Assembly (NCBI RefSeq): GCF_013122565.1 | Contig: NZ_CP053258.1 | From: Escherichia coli | GTDB lineage: Bacteria; Pseudomonadota; Gammaproteobacteria; Enterobacterales; Enterobacteriaceae | Length of the DNA: 64,000 nt | Strand: one strand, 5' to 3' | Shown: positions 15,168 to 51,984 of the stretch, in pieces | How the letters are laid out: every line of letters begins with the position of its first letter | Position numbering within the stretch: the stretch's first letter is position 1 | Program-made: the position numbers and the translations under genes | Notes under the pieces: model-generated | Databases searched by the model: none | Seen by the model: only the letters and a program-made list of their open reading frames with translations | What the model was told of the DNA's origin: nothing

Positions 15168-15313
15168 TCATCTGATTTACAAAACACGCTAATTCGTCTC
15201 CCATAAACCATGACGATTAAGATTTATACATAATGCGCTGCATTGAGGAATTCCCTGAATGTGACGCAAATCACTTCAAAGAGTGAGCAACAGTCAGTAT
15301 CATCATGTGAGTT

Positions 15314-15348
15314 AAACCCTCGCCGCCTGACGGTGAGGGTTTTCTTTT
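15314..15348 (+). terminator. intrinsic terminator downstream of rna
   Basis: aaaccctcgccg-cctga-cggtgagggtttt-cttttgg hairpin plus U-tract (coordinates approximate). Confidence 0.6.
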
Positions 15349-15396
15349 GGGTATGTTTATCTGCGACACTCGCAGTACCGACGACATGGAGTAAAA

Positions 15397-37093: not shown

Positions 37094-38098
37094 ATGTCTG
37101 GTTCTGTTGCCGTGACACGCGCCATTGCCGTGCCCGGATTGCTGTTATTACTGATTATCGCGACGGCATTAAGCCTGCTCATTGGGGCAAAATCACTCCC
37201 CGCTTCCGTAGTGCTGGAGGCCTTCTCCGGCACCTGCCAGAGCGCCGACTGCACCATCGTGCTTGACGCGCGACTGCCGCGCACCCTTGCCGGTTTACTG
37301 GCAGGCGGTGCGCTTGGCCTTGCCGGGGCGTTAATGCAAACCCTCACCCGAAACCCACTTGCCGACCCCGGCTTGCTTGGCGTGAACGCCGGAGCCAGCT
37401 TTGCCATTGTGCTGGGTGCGGCGCTGTTTGGTTACTCATCCGCGCAGGAACAACTGGCGATGGCCTTCGCCGGGGCGCTGGTGGCCTCGTTGATTGTTGC
37501 CTTTACCGGCAGCCAGGGCGGCGGGCAGTTAAGCCCGGTGCGTTTAACCCTGGCGGGCGTGGCACTGGCGGCAGTGCTGGAAGGGCTGACCAGCGGCATC
37601 GCCCTGCTCAACCCTGACGTCTACGATCAGTTGCGTTTCTGGCAAGCCGGTTCGCTGGATATTCGCAATCTTCACACCTTAAAAGTAGTACTGATCCCGG
37701 TATTGATTGCCGGAGCAACCGCGCTATTACTGAGCCGCGCGCTGAACAGTCTGAGTCTCGGCAGCGATACCGCAACGGCGCTGGGCAGTCGCGTGGCGCG
37801 CACACAGTTGATTGGTCTGCTGGCGATTACCGTGCTTTGTGGTAGTGCGACGGCGGTAGTTGGCCCGATTGCCTTTATCGGCCTGATGATGCCGCACATG
37901 GCGCGCTGGCTGGTAGGTGCCGATCATCGCTGGTCGCTGCCCGTCACGCTACTTGCTACCCCTGCCCTGCTGCTGTTTGCCGATATCATCGGGCGGGTGA
38001 TTGTGCCCGGTGAACTGCGCGTTTCTGTGGTCAGTGCGTTTATTGGTGCACCGGTGCTAATCTTCCTCGTGCGACGTAAAACGCGAGGTGGCGCATGA
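37094..38098 (+). CDS. fepD: ferric enterobactin ABC transporter permease FepD (334 aa)
   Basis: Internal Met (MSGSVAVTRAIAVPGLLLLL) of track ORF 37082..38098; FecCD-family permease. Confidence 0.9.
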   Translation: MSGSVAVTRAIAVPGLLLLLIIATALSLLIGAKSLPASVVLEAFSGTCQSADCTIVLDARLPRTLAGLLAGGALGLAGALMQTLTRNPLADPGLLGVNAGASFAIVLGAALFGYSSAQEQLAMAFAGALVASLIVAFTGSQGGGQLSPVRLTLAGVALAAVLEGLTSGIALLNPDVYDQLRFWQAGSLDIRNLHTLKVVLIPVLIAGATALLLSRALNSLSLGSDTATALGSRVARTQLIGLLAITVLCGSATAVVGPIAFIGLMMPHMARWLVGADHRWSLPVTLLATPALLLFADIIGRVIVPGELRVSVVSAFIGAPVLIFLVRRKTRGGA

Positions 38099-39087
38099 TT
38101 TACGTCTCTCGCCGATTAATCATCACCTGTTTGCTGTTGGTTTCCGCCTGTGTGGTTGCAGGTATCTGGGGATTACGCAGCGGTGCCGTCACGCTGGAAA
38201 CCTCGCAGGTATTCGCCGCGCTGATGGGCGATGCGCCGCGCAGTATGACGATGGTGGTCACCGAATGGCGTTTACCACGAGTGCTGATGGCGCTGTTGAT
38301 TGGCGCGGCGCTGAGCGTCAGCGGCGCGATTTTTCAGTCGCTGATGCGTAACCCGCTCGGCAGCCCTGACGTAATGGGCTTTAACACCGGGGCGTGGAGC
38401 GGCGTGCTGGTGGCGATGGTGCTGTTTGGTCAGGATCTGACGGCTATCGCGCTGGCAGCAATGGCGGGCGGCATTGTCACCTCGCTGTTGGTCTGGCTGC
38501 TCGCCTGGCGTAACGGTATCGACACCTTTCGGTTGATTATTATCGGCATCGGCGTTCGCGCCATGCTGGTGGCCTTTAATACCTGGCTGTTGCTGAAAGC
38601 GTCTTTAGAAACGGCGCTAACAGCGGGTTTGTGGAATGCAGGCTCGCTCAACGGCCTGACGTGGGCAAAAATCTCGCCTTCCGCCCCCATCATTATATTG
38701 ATGCTCATTGCCGCTGCCTTACTGGTACGCCGGATGCGCTTGCTGGAGATGGGCGATGATACCGCCTGCGCGCTGGGCGTCAGCGTCGAGCGTTCGCGTC
38801 TGTTAATGATGCTGGTTGCAGTGGTGCTTACCGCTGCGGCAACGGCGCTTGCCGGGCCGATTTCCTTTATTGCTTTAGTCGCGCCGCACATTGCCCGACG
38901 CATTAGCGGCACCGCTCGCTGGGGGCTGACCCAGGCGGCGCTGTGCGGAGCGCTGTTACTGCTGGCGGCCGATCTCTGCGCCCAACAACTGTTTATGCCG
39001 TATCAACTTCCGGTTGGCGTCGTTACCGTCAGCCTCGGCGGTATTTACCTTATCGTCTTGTTAATTCAGGAGTCTCGCAAAAAATGA
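38095..39087 (+). CDS. fepG: ferric enterobactin ABC transporter permease FepG (330 aa)
   Basis: Track ORF 330 aa; 4-nt overlap with fepD. Confidence 0.92.
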   Translation: MIYVSRRLIITCLLLVSACVVAGIWGLRSGAVTLETSQVFAALMGDAPRSMTMVVTEWRLPRVLMALLIGAALSVSGAIFQSLMRNPLGSPDVMGFNTGAWSGVLVAMVLFGQDLTAIALAAMAGGIVTSLLVWLLAWRNGIDTFRLIIIGIGVRAMLVAFNTWLLLKASLETALTAGLWNAGSLNGLTWAKISPSAPIIILMLIAAALLVRRMRLLEMGDDTACALGVSVERSRLLMMLVAVVLTAAATALAGPISFIALVAPHIARRISGTARWGLTQAALCGALLLLAADLCAQQLFMPYQLPVGVVTVSLGGIYLIVLLIQESRKK

Positions 39088-39899
39088 CCGAATCAGTAGC
39101 CCGTTTGCGCGGCGAACAGTTAACCCTGGGATATGGCAAATATACCGTTGCGGAAAATCTGACTGTAGAAATTCCTGATGGTCACTTCACGGCAATTATC
39201 GGACCAAATGGCTGTGGTAAATCCACGTTACTGCGTACCTTAAGCCGCCTGATGACGCCTGCTCACGGGCATGTCTGGCTGGATGGCGAGCACATTCAAC
39301 ATTACGCCAGTAAAGAAGTTGCACGCCGGATTGGTCTGTTGGCGCAAAATGCCACCACGCCGGGCGATATCACCGTGCAGGAGCTGGTGGCGCGTGGACG
39401 TTATCCGCATCAACCGCTGTTTACCCGCTGGCGCAAAGAGGATGAAGAAGCGGTAACGAAAGCGATGCAGGCCACGGGAATAACTCATCTGGCAGATCAA
39501 AGCGTGGATACCCTTTCTGGCGGACAACGCCAGCGAGCGTGGATCGCGATGGTGCTGGCCCAGGAAACGGCAATTATGCTGCTCGACGAACCCACGACCT
39601 GGCTGGATATCAGTCATCAGATTGATCTACTGGAACTGTTAAGCGAACTGAACCGCGAGAAAGGCTATACCCTGGCGGCGGTGCTGCACGATCTTAATCA
39701 GGCCTGTCGTTACGCCAGCCATTTGATTGCATTGCGGGAAGGGAAAATTGTTGCTCAGGGAGCGCCGAAGGAGATTGTCACTGCTGAACTGATTGAGCGC
39801 ATTTATGGTCTGCGATGCATGATCATTGACGATCCGGTAGCCGGAACGCCGCTTGTGGTGCCGCTCGGACGAACGGCACCTTCAACCGCAAATAGTTAA
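39084..39899 (+). CDS. fepC: ferric enterobactin ABC transporter ATPase FepC (271 aa)
   Basis: Internal ATG at 39084 (MTESVARLRGEQLTLGY) of track ORF 38943..39899; Walker A GPNGCGKST and LSGGQRQR signature. Confidence 0.93.
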   Translation: MTESVARLRGEQLTLGYGKYTVAENLTVEIPDGHFTAIIGPNGCGKSTLLRTLSRLMTPAHGHVWLDGEHIQHYASKEVARRIGLLAQNATTPGDITVQELVARGRYPHQPLFTRWRKEDEEAVTKAMQATGITHLADQSVDTLSGGQRQRAWIAMVLAQETAIMLLDEPTTWLDISHQIDLLELLSELNREKGYTLAAVLHDLNQACRYASHLIALREGKIVAQGAPKEIVTAELIERIYGLRCMIIDDPVAGTPLVVPLGRTAPSTANS

Positions 39900-41029
39900 A
39901 CTAAGTGGTCTGCCATCATGGCATCCTGTTTTCTGGATGCCATCGCATGGCGCAACAGCACACCACCACAAGCCACCATCCCGCCGATCAACGCGGAAAG
40001 GATCACAATAATCGCCTTACCCGGACCGTCTTTTTTCACTGGCAATGACGGGCTTAACTGATATTTAAACGGCGTAAAATTCACATCGTTGACATTTGCT
40101 TTTGTTAATTGCTCGACAAGATACTGACGATTACGTAATTCACCATTCAGTTCCGCAACGTCAGTAACCGCTTTTTCAATTTCCAGTTTGCGTTCAATAC
40201 CGTCTGCGCCGAGAGAAATAGAGAAATCGGGGTCATCTTTAACGGCCTGACCATTACTGTATACGGGCTTTTTAATTCCTGCCGCGTTGGCAATGTCGAG
40301 TGAATAATTGAGGCGCTGAATGTTTGCATCAAGTTGATTTTTCGTTTTAATGCGATCCTGAGCCAGTTTTTCTTTTTCAAACTGGGTTTTGATCTCCAGC
40401 TTATTACGGACGTTTTCTAGCGACTCTTTCACCACCAACGCAGAGATATAATCGATATACCCGCTCAAAACGGTCTGCGCCTCTTCACTGGTTGGCGCGG
40501 TAAAACTTAGCGTCCAGGAGGTATACAGTGACGGTTCATCTTTTTTCTTACTGGCATTGTCATCAACCGCTTTCATTTTTTCGCTCAATGCGACAATTGC
40601 GCGATGCAAATCCAGTTCGTCGATTTTCGCCTCTTTTAATTGGTCCATCACATAAGGTGATGAACGCAGGTACTCTTCCAGCAAGCTAATTGACTGAAAT
40701 TTCTTGATAAACAGATTAAATACACCGCCACGGTCGATATTAACATCGAGATCAAGAACGCGGAGTTTGGTAAAGGTTTTCTCCAGGTCCTGCCACTGAA
40801 TGGCTTCGGCGGGAGTAATGACGGCTGAGCTGGTCCATTTTTGCGGCAGGATGAAAGAGATCAGCAAGCCTGCGCAGGCAAATGCAAAAACGACTGCCAT
40901 GACCGTTTTTTTGGCCCGCCATAAAACTTCGATTAGATTAAGTAAATCAATTTCATTATTACTGGGCGATGCCAGAGGATACTCAGGAAAATGAGCGTCA
41001 CTTCCCTGTTTAATATTCAGTGATGACAT
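39896..41029 (-). CDS. fepE: polysaccharide co-polymerase (Wzz-like) FepE (377 aa)
   Basis: Internal Met (MSSLNIKQGSDAHFPEYPLASP) of track ORF 39896..41080; two TM helices flanking a coiled-coil periplasmic domain. Confidence 0.9.
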   Translation of the reverse strand: MSSLNIKQGSDAHFPEYPLASPSNNEIDLLNLIEVLWRAKKTVMAVVFAFACAGLLISFILPQKWTSSAVITPAEAIQWQDLEKTFTKLRVLDLDVNIDRGGVFNLFIKKFQSISLLEEYLRSSPYVMDQLKEAKIDELDLHRAIVALSEKMKAVDDNASKKKDEPSLYTSWTLSFTAPTSEEAQTVLSGYIDYISALVVKESLENVRNKLEIKTQFEKEKLAQDRIKTKNQLDANIQRLNYSLDIANAAGIKKPVYSNGQAVKDDPDFSISLGADGIERKLEIEKAVTDVAELNGELRNRQYLVEQLTKANVNDVNFTPFKYQLSPSLPVKKDGPGKAIIVILSALIGGMVACGGVLLRHAMASRKQDAMMADHLV

Positions 41030-41194
41030 GGGTATAACCTGAAAATGAGTCCAATAGGGGAAAATCTCCACGGCGCTCACTTTACCAGTTGGTGAGAATT
41101 ATCCGAAGCTGAAGTTTGTAAATTCCTTCCACTGAATGAAACATTCACTCTATTTAAGAGAAATGACCAACAAACATATAAATTAAATAAATGA

Positions 41195-41229
41195 TTAACC
41201 CATAATTATTTCCTGTAATTATGGGTTAA
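41195..41229. repeat. perfect 14-bp-arm inverted repeat 15 nt downstream of the entF stop
   Basis: ttaacccataatta-tttcctg-taattatgggttaa; followed on the minus strand by an AT-rich tract. Confidence 0.6.
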
Positions 41230-41243
41230 TAGATAATATTAAT

Positions 41244-49067: not shown

Positions 49068-49164
49068 GCCGGATGCGGCGTGAACGCCTTATCCGGCCTA
49101 CAAAATCTTGCTAATTCAATATATTGCAGGACTACGTAGGCCTGATAAGCGTAGCGCATCAGGC
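49068..49164. repeat. BIME: two REP units in inverted orientation between fepA and entD
   Basis: gccggatgcggcgtgaacgccttatccggcctaca (49068-49102) and gtaggcctgataagcgtagcgcatcaggc (49136-49164). Confidence 0.6.
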
Positions 49165-51044: not shown

Positions 51045-51562
51045 TTTTTCGTGGGATGAGCTAAGGCTTTCAGCTTTTTTAGATACACAAGCCGCGTTTC
51101 AAGAAATCGAACTTGCCTTTCAAGATCCTCAATGCGTCGGTCTTTTGACAGCTCCAATGCTGATGCCGCTTTTTCTGGATCAACTGATATTGCAATGTTT
51201 CTTTTGGTGCCAATCTTGAGCGCGCGTAAACCAGCTTCTCCGCGCTCTTCATAAACCTTCAGCCACCTGGCTACAGAACCACTACCAGCAAGCATAAAGT
51301 GAGCAGCAGCCTGATTAAGGGACATGTGCTGCTCGATCACAGCTTTCACGACCTTAATACGCAACTCTGGATCAGCACTAACACCTTTAGGTTTGGGAAT
51401 TAAACCTTTTTCTCCATGTTTTTCATAGAGGGCAACCCATGTCCTGACCTGGGTTCGGGGGACACCAAAACGTGCCGAGATGATCCTGTAACCATCATCA
51501 GTAGTGAAGTAGTGATTCACGACTTCAAGGCGCTTTTCAAAAGGGTATTTTGGCTTTGACAT
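51041..51562 (-). CDS. insJ: IS150 OrfA (InsJ, HTH DNA-binding, 173 aa)
   Basis: Track ORF 173 aa (MSKPKYPFEKRLEVVNHYFTTDDGYRIISARFGVPRTQVRTW...), recognised as IS150 OrfA. Confidence 0.93.
   Translation of the reverse strand: MSKPKYPFEKRLEVVNHYFTTDDGYRIISARFGVPRTQVRTWVALYEKHGEKGLIPKPKGVSADPELRIKVVKAVIEQHMSLNQAAAHFMLAGSGSVARWLKVYEERGEAGLRALKIGTKRNIAISVDPEKAASALELSKDRRIEDLERQVRFLETRLVYLKKLKALAHPTKK
51074..51080 (-). other. IS150 programmed -1 ribosomal frameshift slippery heptamer A_AAA_AAG near the end of orfA
   Basis: orfA codons ...CTA AAA AAG CTG... (L-K-K-L) located 11-12 codons before the orfA stop, within the orfA/orfB overlap window. Confidence 0.7.
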
Positions 51563-51984
51563 ATCAGGGGCTATTCCATTTCATCGTCCAACAAAATGGG
51601 TGCAGTACAGGGTTGATAGAAATATCTCCTGGGGCTTCATCTTTCCAGACCTCAGAGTAAACCTGAAACCGGAAAGCTTCAGGCACCCGCCGTTATCTTA
51701 CCCTTCCTCAACAAAATAGCTGTTTATTTATACAGTGAGTCCTGTTTCGGACTTCTCACTCCCCATTTGATCAACTGAAGCTGAACCCGTTTTTTTCTGC
51801 ATGCCGCAATCGTCAAAATTCTTCGCCACCAGCCAGCCGTGCCATAACTTGTCACATTGCAAAAGTAGCCAAATTGCTTCAGGCACCATCAGTTCACCAT
51901 CACCAAAAAAAAGAAACATTCCAGAACTTCCGCATCTCGCCCAGCCGCTCCGACTTCTATACTGAATAGAAAACGCCAACATAA

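Follow-up and report, generated by a model that had tools for sequence, protein, structure and literature searches.

The convergent genes fepC and fepE of Escherichia coli overlap tail to tail by the four nucleotides TTAA, which supply the stop codons of both. In the window, the 64,000-nucleotide stretch of E. coli DNA analysed here, this overlap is real, ordinary and already known. Taken as a whole, the data are best explained, with a probability of about 0.75, by an ordinary 4-nt overlap that arose when a terminator-bearing spacer was lost in the Escherichia lineage, with transcription from each side now predicted to end within the opposing gene.

The shared tetranucleotide was read from the sequence as T39896, T39897, A39898 and A39899, and the junction in the window reads GCAAATAGTTAAACTAAG. 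Both the ORF list and the sequence place the TAA stop of fepC, on the plus strand, at 39897-39899 and that of fepE, on the minus strand, at the complement of 39896-39898. The first-pass annotation had proposed one TTAA as the stop of both genes, and this is exact to the base. The features involved are as follows.

39084..39899, plus strand: fepC coding sequence, 271 codons and a TAA stop at 39897-39899, the last gene of fepDGC
39896..41029, minus strand: fepE, or wzz(fepE), coding sequence, 377 codons and a TAA stop encoded by 39896-39898
39896..39899, either strand: TTAA shared by both stops, with no variant seen in 8 E. coli genomes, three further Escherichia species or 12 metagenome contigs
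39873..39896, plus strand: C-terminal FepC tail TAPSTANS, specific to the Escherichia lineage, which comes after the conserved ...PLVVPLGR; the NCBIfam profile stops at residue 265

The gene names assigned previously are right, as judged by the K-12 annotation and by NCBIfam equivalog models. The fepC product matched NF007606 over residues 1-265 (613 bits, cut-off 497) and the fepE product matched NF007699, Wzz(FepE), over residues 1-368 (622 bits, cut-off 300); the C-terminal tails of both proteins lie outside the family profiles. The length of fepC in the window is that of K-12 fepC, and FepE scored 785 bits against PDB 9ski. The label 'enterobactin' that had been attached to the locus does not fit fepE, which is not an enterobactin transport gene but an O-antigen chain-length regulator of the Wzz family. 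Both members of the pair are genuine protein-coding genes, and they meet tail to tail from opposite strands. Their stops have the two central bases in common, and the tetramer comes from the set TTAA, CTAA, TTAG and CTAG, the only four in which a double stop is possible; these are the features of the 4-nt convergent stop-stop overlap.

In the reference annotation of K-12 MG1655, fepE (b0587) occupies 618254..619387 and fepC (b0588) 619384..620199, so that the 4-nt overlap is already annotated there. It is also found in USMARC-49610 and in five E. coli strains spread over the identity range; across this kilobase the window shares 95-99% identity with most E. coli (best match 99.5%). All sequences sampled from mainstream E. 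coli, E. albertii, E. whittamii and the cryptic clades had the overlap. A comparison of the junction in other loci, which had been named earlier as a check, returned the 4-nt overlap in the mainstream Escherichia sampled and a spacer in Salmonella and Citrobacter. Overlaps of this kind are common: the modal overlap length overall is 4 bp and the distribution for convergent genes jumps at 4 (Lillo and Krakauer 2007, PMC2174442). The same study counted 1890 convergent overlaps in 58 genomes, 1218 of them of at least 5 nt, and 58 convergent overlaps in E. coli alone (PMC2174442). The last fepE codons, TTA-GTT-TAA, read TTA-AAC-TAA on the opposite strand. An incoming fepC would therefore meet a stop no more than 9 nt from that of fepE in two of its three possible reading frames. 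The shared TTAA is not more than chance would give, and it belongs to the commonest kind of tail-to-tail overlap. Literature searches on convergence, overlap, antisense and Rho returned nothing on the fepC/fepE junction, and Rfam gave no family at the junction, the sole match being a meaningless 17.5-bit hit to tmRNA.

The origin of the overlap was traced in 29 sequences with convergent fepC and fepE, comprising the window, three annotated E. coli records and 25 GTDB species loci. Six of these, all mainstream Escherichia, have the overlap, and the other 23 have a spacer of 30-190 nt with a GC-rich hairpin; within this set of convergent loci, the distribution shows the overlap as a derived state confined to Escherichia. 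Spacer and hairpin are kept in Salmonella, in Citrobacter (33-53 nt in four loci, with stops computed from the alignment start) and in a rare E. coli fepE allele found in 5 of 5426 genomes. Those spacer hairpins that were folded look like terminators: Salmonella carries a textbook A5-stem-T5 bidirectional terminator, AAAAAGCCGGATA-loop-TATCCGGCTTTTT, and in the rare E. coli allele a stem on the fepE strand runs directly into U7. In the alignment, ~48 spacer columns are absent from mainstream Escherichia, and the distal, fepE-proximal part of the Citrobacter spacer aligns to the last codons of the FepC tail. FepE ends in ...LV-stop at the corresponding alignment position in most of the taxa, and both Salmonella and the rare E. 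coli allele are among these. Where a spacer is present, FepC has 264-267 aa, apart from one locus with 273 aa; in mainstream Escherichia it has 271 aa. In 43 species fepE is absent and entF converges directly on fepC.

From these alignments, the following course is suggested. A short spacer bearing a terminator hairpin would have been lost from between fepC and fepE in the Escherichia lineage, while the orthologous fepE stop was retained. With the old fepC stop lost as well, translation would have read on through the spacer remnant, adding ~6 residues as the TAPSTANS tail, and would have halted at the first in-frame stop, a TAA formed by the complement of the fepE stop and the next base. A shared TTAA arising in this way would require no selection. 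That the spacer was lost and not gained is argued by parsimony, the outgroup hairpins differing in sequence, and the rare E. coli allele may have been imported and so not represent the ancestral state. An out-of-frame TAG at 39893-39895 was considered as a relic of the old fepC stop, in view of AAATAGTAA in the rare allele, and was rejected, as only the K-12-like haplotype has this TAG and other Escherichia read AAAGATTTAA, GATGATTTAA or GAAAATTTAA.

The overlap had been taken to leave 'no terminator space'. Intergenic space is indeed absent, but determinants of 3' ends are not thereby absent, as hairpins and C-rich tracts lie inside the partner genes. Where convergent genes overlap, terminators must sit inside the coding sequence of the partner, as described for E. 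coli (PMC2174442). The candidate elements are listed below.

39857..39880, minus strand (fepE-strand RNA): hairpin C, GGUGCCGUUC-GUCC-GAGCGGCACC, 10 bp, GC-rich, 15 nt past the fepE stop, without a U-tract (folding)
39918..39943, plus strand (fepC-strand RNA): hairpin E, AUGGCAUCC-UGUUUUCU-GGAUGCCAU, 9 bp, 18 nt past the fepC stop, without a U-tract (folding)
39911..39933, plus strand: weak terminator-like site, TGCCA-TCA-TGGCA (5-bp stem, 39911-39923) followed by TCCTGTTTTC (consensus scan)
39913..40042, plus strand: C-rich, G-poor tract resembling a Rho-utilisation site, C/G 1.65-2.2, in the RNA past the fepC stop
39701..39817, minus strand: C-rich, G-poor tract, C/G 1.7-2.0, in the RNA past the fepE stop

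Hairpin C lies inside fepC; on the plus strand, conserved fepC codons contain its 5' arm and the codons of the new FepC tail its 3' arm. The 48-nt segment that contains it (39849-39896) has a minus-strand folding energy of -23.8 kcal/mol, as compared with -12.4 +/- 2.9 in 1000 synonymous recodings, none of which was as stable; for the plus strand the value was only p = 0.039. The pairing is perfect on the fepE-RNA strand only, via a G-U pair. Hairpin C is unchanged in 11 genomes, and two metagenome variants break pairs without compensation. Hairpin E lies inside fepE, where the opposite strand codes for the FepE residues MASRKQDAM, and it is likewise stabler than synonymous recodings, with p = 0.004 for the sense strand and p = 0.010 for the antisense strand. 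Its 7-bp core is invariant over Escherichia, and the uncompensated change T39919C is common. Against shuffled sequences, the two hairpins gave z = -3.2 to -4.3. The most variable stretch of the region is the 15-18 nt between the hairpins and TTAA, the hairpins themselves being conserved. Selection on either structure is nevertheless no more than a possibility, because another invariant run in the same 1 kb is longer than hairpin C, which ranks second when reduced diversity among the 11 genomes is taken as the sign of selection, and because natural uncompensated pair-breaking variants occur in both hairpins. Conservation across genera of a hairpin over the FepE 'SRK' codons was also considered and did not hold, as only the two Escherichia allele families exceed synonymous recodings; the stems of these two are in different registers and therefore do not represent covariation. 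As no U-tract follows either one, neither hairpin C nor hairpin E is a canonical intrinsic terminator.

The C-rich stretches fall in the first 143 nt past the stop in the plus-strand RNA and 79-195 nt past the stop in the minus-strand RNA. Against the background of the window, where the 95th and 99th percentiles of C/G are 1.73 and 2.22, the ratios within 150-200 nt past each stop rank in the top 1-5%. Untranslated, C-rich and G-poor RNA, as found downstream of the stop at Rho terminators, is thus present here, although this composition alone is generic to antisense RNA, C-rich antisense RNA being a generic property of coding DNA. On this evidence the hairpins and the C-rich tracts are plausible determinants of the 3' ends.

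Polymerases coming from the Fur-regulated fepDGC operon and from the fepE side would each pass TTAA into the last codons of the partner. A stable hairpin would then form in each RNA, hairpin E in that of fepDGC and hairpin C in that of fepE. As each RNA would be untranslated and C-rich beyond its stop and would carry a stable hairpin, release would probably occur via Rho, via head-on collision of polymerases, or both, and the hairpins would then protect the 3' ends. The 3' ends are predicted to be complementary over ~90 nt or more, with a modest effect on expression expected. Every step of this model past the overlap of the stops is inferred. The antisense RNA anticipated by the first-pass annotation is borne out in part: a transcript has to run through its own stop codon, so that the two mRNAs cannot avoid overlapping to some degree. 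Transcriptional interference, raised there as a possible consequence, may occur but does not follow from the overlap. Neither fepE nor fepC is listed in the Term-seq supplements of PMC7815308 and PMC12207403.

Other explanations were weighed against this reading. If the overlap were an artefact of annotation or indexing, or if one partner were a decaying pseudogene, it would be biologically meaningless. The lack of an obvious role for fepE in K-12, which makes no O-antigen, and one strain with fepE interrupted by IS1 would agree with decay, but neither ORF is truncated, the scores of both greatly exceed the curated equivalog cut-offs, most of the region is present in 5401 of 5426 genomes, fepE is a normal, unflagged gene in seven mainstream E. 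coli records, and a full-length fepE ORF occurs in three other Escherichia species. Both stops are fixed by the sequence itself, and the artefact half of this explanation is already refuted; as a whole it is scarcely credible. Termination could instead be intrinsic, with the TGCCA-TCA-TGGCA stem and its T-rich tail ending fepDGC 12 nt past the stop and little transcription entering fepE. This stem was flagged by the consensus scan and lies directly past the stop, a position typical of a terminator. However, it has 5 pairs only, four such sites were found in 2.4 kb where 2.8 are expected by chance, the far stabler hairpin E competes for the same bases, and the stem cannot form in E. albertii, E. 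whittamii and several common E. coli haplotypes; on the fepE strand, the scan shows no counterpart. The site is probably not functional, and intrinsic termination of fepDGC there is highly improbable. Nor does the junction in the window have the intergenic GC-rich hairpin, with an A-tract upstream and a T-tract downstream, of a bidirectional intrinsic terminator, since there is no intergenic space and hairpins C and E have no U-tracts on the relevant strand; Salmonella does have this arrangement, and the rare E. coli allele has it on the fepE strand.

A selected regulatory device was considered as well. After loss of the canonical terminator, the two hairpins inside the genes would act together as a collision-dependent bidirectional terminator, and convergent transcription or double-stranded RNA would couple or mutually limit fepDGC and fepE under iron starvation. 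The much greater stability of both hairpins than of same-peptide recodings (0 of 1000 for the C segment on the fepE strand; p = 0.004-0.01 for E), the strand-specific perfection of hairpin C through its G-U pair, and the conservation of the hairpins next to the highly variable 15-18 nt beside TTAA are all in keeping with such a device. Both fepDGC and fes-ybdZ-entF-fepE, or fepE, have been reported as Fur-regulated (PMC6049941; PMC7157518), and therefore both units should be active under iron limitation. A stem-loop is needed for collision-type bidirectional termination at convergent E. coli pairs (bioRxiv 10.1101/2022.10.23.513370), and a predicted stem-loop in the nascent RNA is found on each side of this convergent boundary (39857-39880 in the minus-strand RNA and 39918-39943 in the plus-strand RNA). 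Uncompensated pair-breaking variants in nature speak against the device, as does the fact that an ordinary spacer terminator suffices in the sister lineages and in the rare E. coli allele; the loss happened in a single evolutionary event, which leaves n = 1 for the association of embedded hairpins with an absent spacer. In addition, few polymerases may reach fepE, because a hairpin with a T-rich tail was located past entF by the consensus scan. We consider the device unlikely. A more specific proposal is quite doubtful, namely that two hairpins took the place of the conventional terminator in the Escherichia lineage, each of them incorporated into the final codons of the gene opposite, that hairpin C may be the 3' arm of the old terminator re-paired with conserved fepC codons, and that the pair would now form a split bidirectional terminator dependent on collision or Rho. 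If that were true, expression of an iron transporter operon and expression of a regulator of very long O-antigen would each depend on the other while the bacterium is starved of iron in the host.

Under the preferred reading, an ordinary overlap left by loss of the spacer, the overlap itself is of little importance, as the reference annotation already shows it and no class of convergent overlap is commoner. The locus does provide a natural comparison, in which the same gene pair has a bidirectional terminator in Salmonella, a one-sided intrinsic terminator in the rare E. coli allele and no spacer in mainstream Escherichia. It would be a handy test bed for how converging polymerases are stopped without terminator space and for whether hairpins embedded in coding sequence replace a terminator. 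Any interference would act under infection-relevant conditions, because both units, as reported members of the Fur regulon, should respond to iron limitation.

Among known systems, the collision class of Ju et al. 2019, in the summary given by Wang et al., is defined by mapped transcript ends and Rho independence (bioRxiv 10.1101/2022.10.23.513370). The fepC and fepE pair shares with it convergent units, stem-loops that do not look intrinsic and predicted overlapping 3' ends, but has two separate hairpins inside coding sequence in place of one element between the genes, and is placed beside it from its sequence. The 4-nt convergent stop-stop class (PMC2174442) has opposite-strand stops with two central bases in common, exactly as at fepC/fepE, and nothing structural separates the two; the overlap here is in addition traced to spacer loss within one genus. 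The window comes from a different strain than K-12 MG1655 but matches it in the 4-nt overlap, in the lengths of both genes (1134 nt for fepE, 816 nt for fepC) and in the junction sequence GCAAATAGTTAAACTAAG. Rho reportedly suppresses antisense and read-through transcription in E. coli, a finding ascribed to Peters et al. in 2012, and the untranslated C-rich, G-poor RNA that starts right after each of the two stops resembles that situation, the likeness being one of RNA composition. The Salmonella fepC-fepE spacer terminator differs in that the window has no spacer, no hairpin flanked by A- and T-tracts and no hairpin common to both strands, but it serves the same gene pair and the same need to halt two converging polymerases.

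On the + strand the junction reads GCA AAT AGT TAA ACT AAG, with the TTAA at 39896-39899. The + strand ORF ends at 39899 and the - strand ORF has its stop at 39896-39898 in the mechanical ORF list, and the first-pass annotation, which had placed both stops in one TTAA, was exact to the sequence and to this list. The genes, each identified above its NCBIfam cut-off, and the hairpins embedded in their ends are as follows.

39084-39899, + strand: fepC, ATG at 39084; 613 bits against equivalog NF007606 (cut-off 497 bits)
39896-41029, - strand: fepE, encoding Wzz(FepE), ATG at 41029, stop at 39896-39898; 622 bits against NF007699 (cut-off 300 bits)
39857-39880, within fepC, in fepE-strand RNA: hairpin C, 15 nt past the fepE stop, 10 pairs, GGUGCCGUUC-GUCC-GAGCGGCACC
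39918-39943, within fepE, in fepC-strand RNA: hairpin E, 18 nt past the fepC stop, 9 pairs, AUGGCAUCC-UGUUUUCU-GGAUGCCAU

The FepE protein matches the solved FepE structures 9ski, 3b8m and 3b8n, and the nearest solved relative of FepC is FhuC, in an alignment spanning residues 21-257 only. Both protein tails extend beyond the curated family profiles, which cover FepC up to residue 265 (of 271) and FepE up to residue 368 (of 377). The stops overlap and a canonical terminator is absent at the junction; the earlier statement that there is no space for a terminator is therefore borne out, as the intergenic space is nil, though two stable hairpins flank the shared stops. Upstream, fepD/fepG (38095-38098) and fepG/fepC (39084-39087) also overlap by 4 nt, with the start ATG on the preceding stop as in the K-12 annotation, which is the usual geometry of translational coupling.

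The fepC/fepE TTAA overlap is already known. In the K-12 MG1655 record, fepE (618254..619387) and fepC (619384..620199) each have the length of their counterpart here and share the same 4 nt, and the overlap is annotated alike in the best-matching strain and in five strains down the identity range. Of 5426 complete E. coli genomes, 5416 contain the 1-kb junction region; in the bovine strain PF9285 (NZ_CP038791.1:2214107-2215883, junction-search match H5), fepE is broken by IS1A and the junction query aligns as two pieces. Only TTAA, CTAA, TTAG and CTAG can provide stops on opposite strands, a class made explicit by Lillo and Krakauer (PMC2174442), who recorded 1890 convergent overlaps in 58 genomes, 1218 of these of at least 5 nt, and 58 in E. 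coli. In the same study the modal overlap length overall is 4 bp, and the convergent distribution jumps at length 4. The final fepE codons are TTA-GTT-TAA, or TTA-AAC-TAA on the opposite strand; two of three incoming fepC frames would stop there, at a 4-nt or 9-nt overlap, and the third runs on for 116 nt. A short overlap is thus almost forced by the fepE end, and the shared TTAA is not beyond chance expectation.

The junction was compared across 80 species-representative loci fetched by FepC, with both stops recomputed for each. Adding the window and three annotated E. coli records gave 84 sequences, of which 55 had no convergent fepE. Among the 29 convergent pairs, the 4-nt TTAA overlap was restricted to mainstream Escherichia (E. 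coli, E. albertii, E. whittamii and cryptic-clade MOD1-EC7003). In the remaining 23, a spacer of 30-190 nt separates the stops and bears REP-like repeats or a GC-rich hairpin; its length is 54 nt in Salmonella, 45-46 nt in the Citrobacter freundii group and 30-190 nt in other Citrobacter, and a few further taxa also have one. When folded, the Salmonella spacer gives a textbook bidirectional terminator, AAAAAGCCGGAUA-loop-UAUCCGGCUUUUU. FepE ends in ...LV-stop at the homologous position in most of the taxa compared, Salmonella and the rare E. coli allele described below among them. FepC, where a spacer is present, ends in ...PLVVPLGR plus 1-4 residues (plus 10 in Citrobacter sp. R56), and in mainstream Escherichia in ...PLVVPLGR plus TAPSTANS. 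Alignment A1 has about 48 spacer columns missing from mainstream Escherichia, and the FepC tail codons align to the fepE-proximal Citrobacter spacer (E. albertii CAACCGCGATGAT|TTA versus Citrobacter CATACGCAATGAC|TTA). The simplest reading, by parsimony from these alignments, is a single loss of the terminator-bearing spacer within the Escherichia lineage; the fepE stop would have been retained, and fepC would read through the spacer remnant until the first in-frame stop. Two fetched loci are unusual. In the single-contig long-read genome of Citrobacter amalonaticus AUH_CA_2023_1, the fepE frame before the stop has only 115 codons, which may reflect a pseudogene or faulty assembly. The other is a 647-kb contig under the label Chryseobacterium sp. 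18061 (CACSKA010000002.1); its FepC is 87% identical to that of E. coli and ranks among enterobacterial FepC matches, and the record is probably mislabelled or contaminated.

A divergent fepE allele with a spacer is carried by 5 of the 5426 complete E. coli genomes (strains NCTC9967, H5, H6, LD93-1 and MSB1_9D, H5 here being a strain name), and further by a GTDB representative (L006) and one contig from a gut metagenome. The fetched loci with this allele are the following.

L083:3483-3523: E. coli NCTC9967, FepC of 266 aa, spacer of 35 nt
L006:3796-3837: GTDB representative, FepC of 265 aa, spacer of 36 nt
L093: a further rare-allele locus

The rare FepE is ~79% identical to the common allele and 75-76% to Salmonella FepE, and the switch in similarity starts ~30 nt ahead of the fepC end. 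On the fepE strand its spacer hairpin, GGGGAGCG-loop-CGCUCCC followed by U7, looks like an intrinsic terminator in NCTC9967. Over the S-R-K codons of fepE, both Escherichia allele families carry a perfect hairpin of 8-9 bp whose loop is 8 nt long (L083:3545-3568; window 39918-39943), with unrelated arm sequences, a register 2 nt apart, and unusual stability relative to synonymous recodings in both. Nothing comparable was found in other genera, where a hairpin over these codons is not a general feature of fepE.

fepE is not an enterobactin gene; annotators' name for it is LPS O-antigen length regulator. In 43 species without fepE, entF converges directly on fepC at a distance of 45-300 nt, and fepE therefore appears to sit within an older convergent junction of entF and fepC. 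Genera lacking fepE downstream of fepC include Klebsiella, Enterobacter, Kosakonia, Raoultella and Lelliottia, among others (loci L007-L082), and the entF|fepC gap is often crossed by GC-rich inverted repeats, e.g. CCCTCTCCC...GGGAGAGGG. Two features of the window bear on whether fepE is really co-transcribed with entF: a 15-bp AT-rich perfect hairpin with a T-rich tail between the entF stop and fepE (41194-41230, - strand; ATTAACCCATAATTA...TAATTATGGGTTAAT), and a promoter-like site within entF (41331-41302).

The hairpins at the shared stop are more stable than their coding content predicts. The 48-nt segment 39849-39896, which includes hairpin C, folds on the - strand at -23.8 kcal/mol, against a mean of -12.4 +/- 2.9 for 1000 synonymous recodings, none as stable. 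On the + strand an A-C mismatch takes the place of a G-U pair and stability exceeds that of the recodings only marginally (p = 0.039); on this strand the 5' arm lies in conserved fepC codons (VVPLG) and the 3' arm in the lineage-specific tail. Hairpin E, whose DNA codes for FepE residues MASRKQDAM, likewise exceeds its recodings (p = 0.004-0.01). As neither is followed by a U-tract, they are not canonical intrinsic terminators. The sole site from a consensus scan was rejected; this 5-bp stem (39911-39923), which has a T-rich tail, is weak, overlaps hairpin E and is not preserved in other Escherichia or in common E. coli haplotypes. The read-through RNAs are C-rich and G-poor (C/G of 1.65-2.2 over the first 143 nt of the + RNA and 1.7-2.0 at 79-195 nt of the - RNA; 95th percentile of the window, 1.73), which fits Rho loading yet is generic to antisense RNA. 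No Rfam family was found at the junction. Gathering-score matches elsewhere in the window were:

1812-2170, - strand: cspA-type thermoregulator
15243-15351, + strand: rnk leader
49102-49143, + strand: ES036 sRNA
51533-51688, - strand: sok antitoxin RNA, a hok/sok-type locus adjoining the ent cluster

In a comparison of 8 E. coli genomes with those of 3 other Escherichia species, neither TTAA nor hairpin C varies in any of the 11, and hairpin E varies at 2 of 26 sites. Variation in the kilobase is highest between the hairpins and TTAA, where one side differs at 6 of 15 sites and the other at 12 of 24 alignment columns, with a 6-nt indel in addition. This may fit, on soft evidence, constrained hairpins on either side of protein tails under weak constraint. 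The invariant run at hairpin C ranks only second in length within the kilobase, and metagenome contigs carry uncompensated pair-breaking changes in both hairpins. E. albertii and E. whittamii (L003 and L005) have an insertion of two codons (6 nt) in the cytoplasmic tail of FepE, ~20-30 nt past TTAA and before hairpin E is reached (...DAMVEMEDRLV and ...DAMIEMDGRLV versus ...DAMMADHLV), which underlines that this tail is weakly constrained.

Both fepDGC and fepE, the latter listed also as fes-ybdZ-entF-fepE, are Fur-regulated (PMC6049941; PMC7157518), so transcription of both is expected when iron is limiting. Each polymerase would then cross TTAA into the last codons of the partner gene, and the nascent RNA, untranslated past the stop, could fold its hairpin. 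Release would follow via Rho, head-on collision or both, after which hairpins C and E would shield the transcript 3' ends, predicted to be complementary across at least 39857-39943. One report on convergent E. coli pairs describes stem-loops, dissimilar to intrinsic terminators, that set the position at which collision ends transcription (bioRxiv 10.1101/2022.10.23.513370). The antisense RNA proposed in the first-pass annotation is logically required over at least a few nt, since both stops overlap, and the antisense overlap is probably tens of nt long; transcriptional interference between the two genes is possible. A literature search found no 3'-end or antisense data on this pair. A selected role for the embedded hairpins, as a split terminator coupling the two Fur-regulated units, is considered unlikely, with a probability of roughly 15%.

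Of mild interest as a by-product, this single gene pair offers a natural series, from a bidirectional terminator through a one-sided terminator to no spacer with embedded hairpins. The junction in the window lacks the features that define a bidirectional intrinsic terminator. It belongs fully to the known class of 4-nt convergent stop-stop overlaps, and its overlap is identical to that in the K-12 reference annotation.
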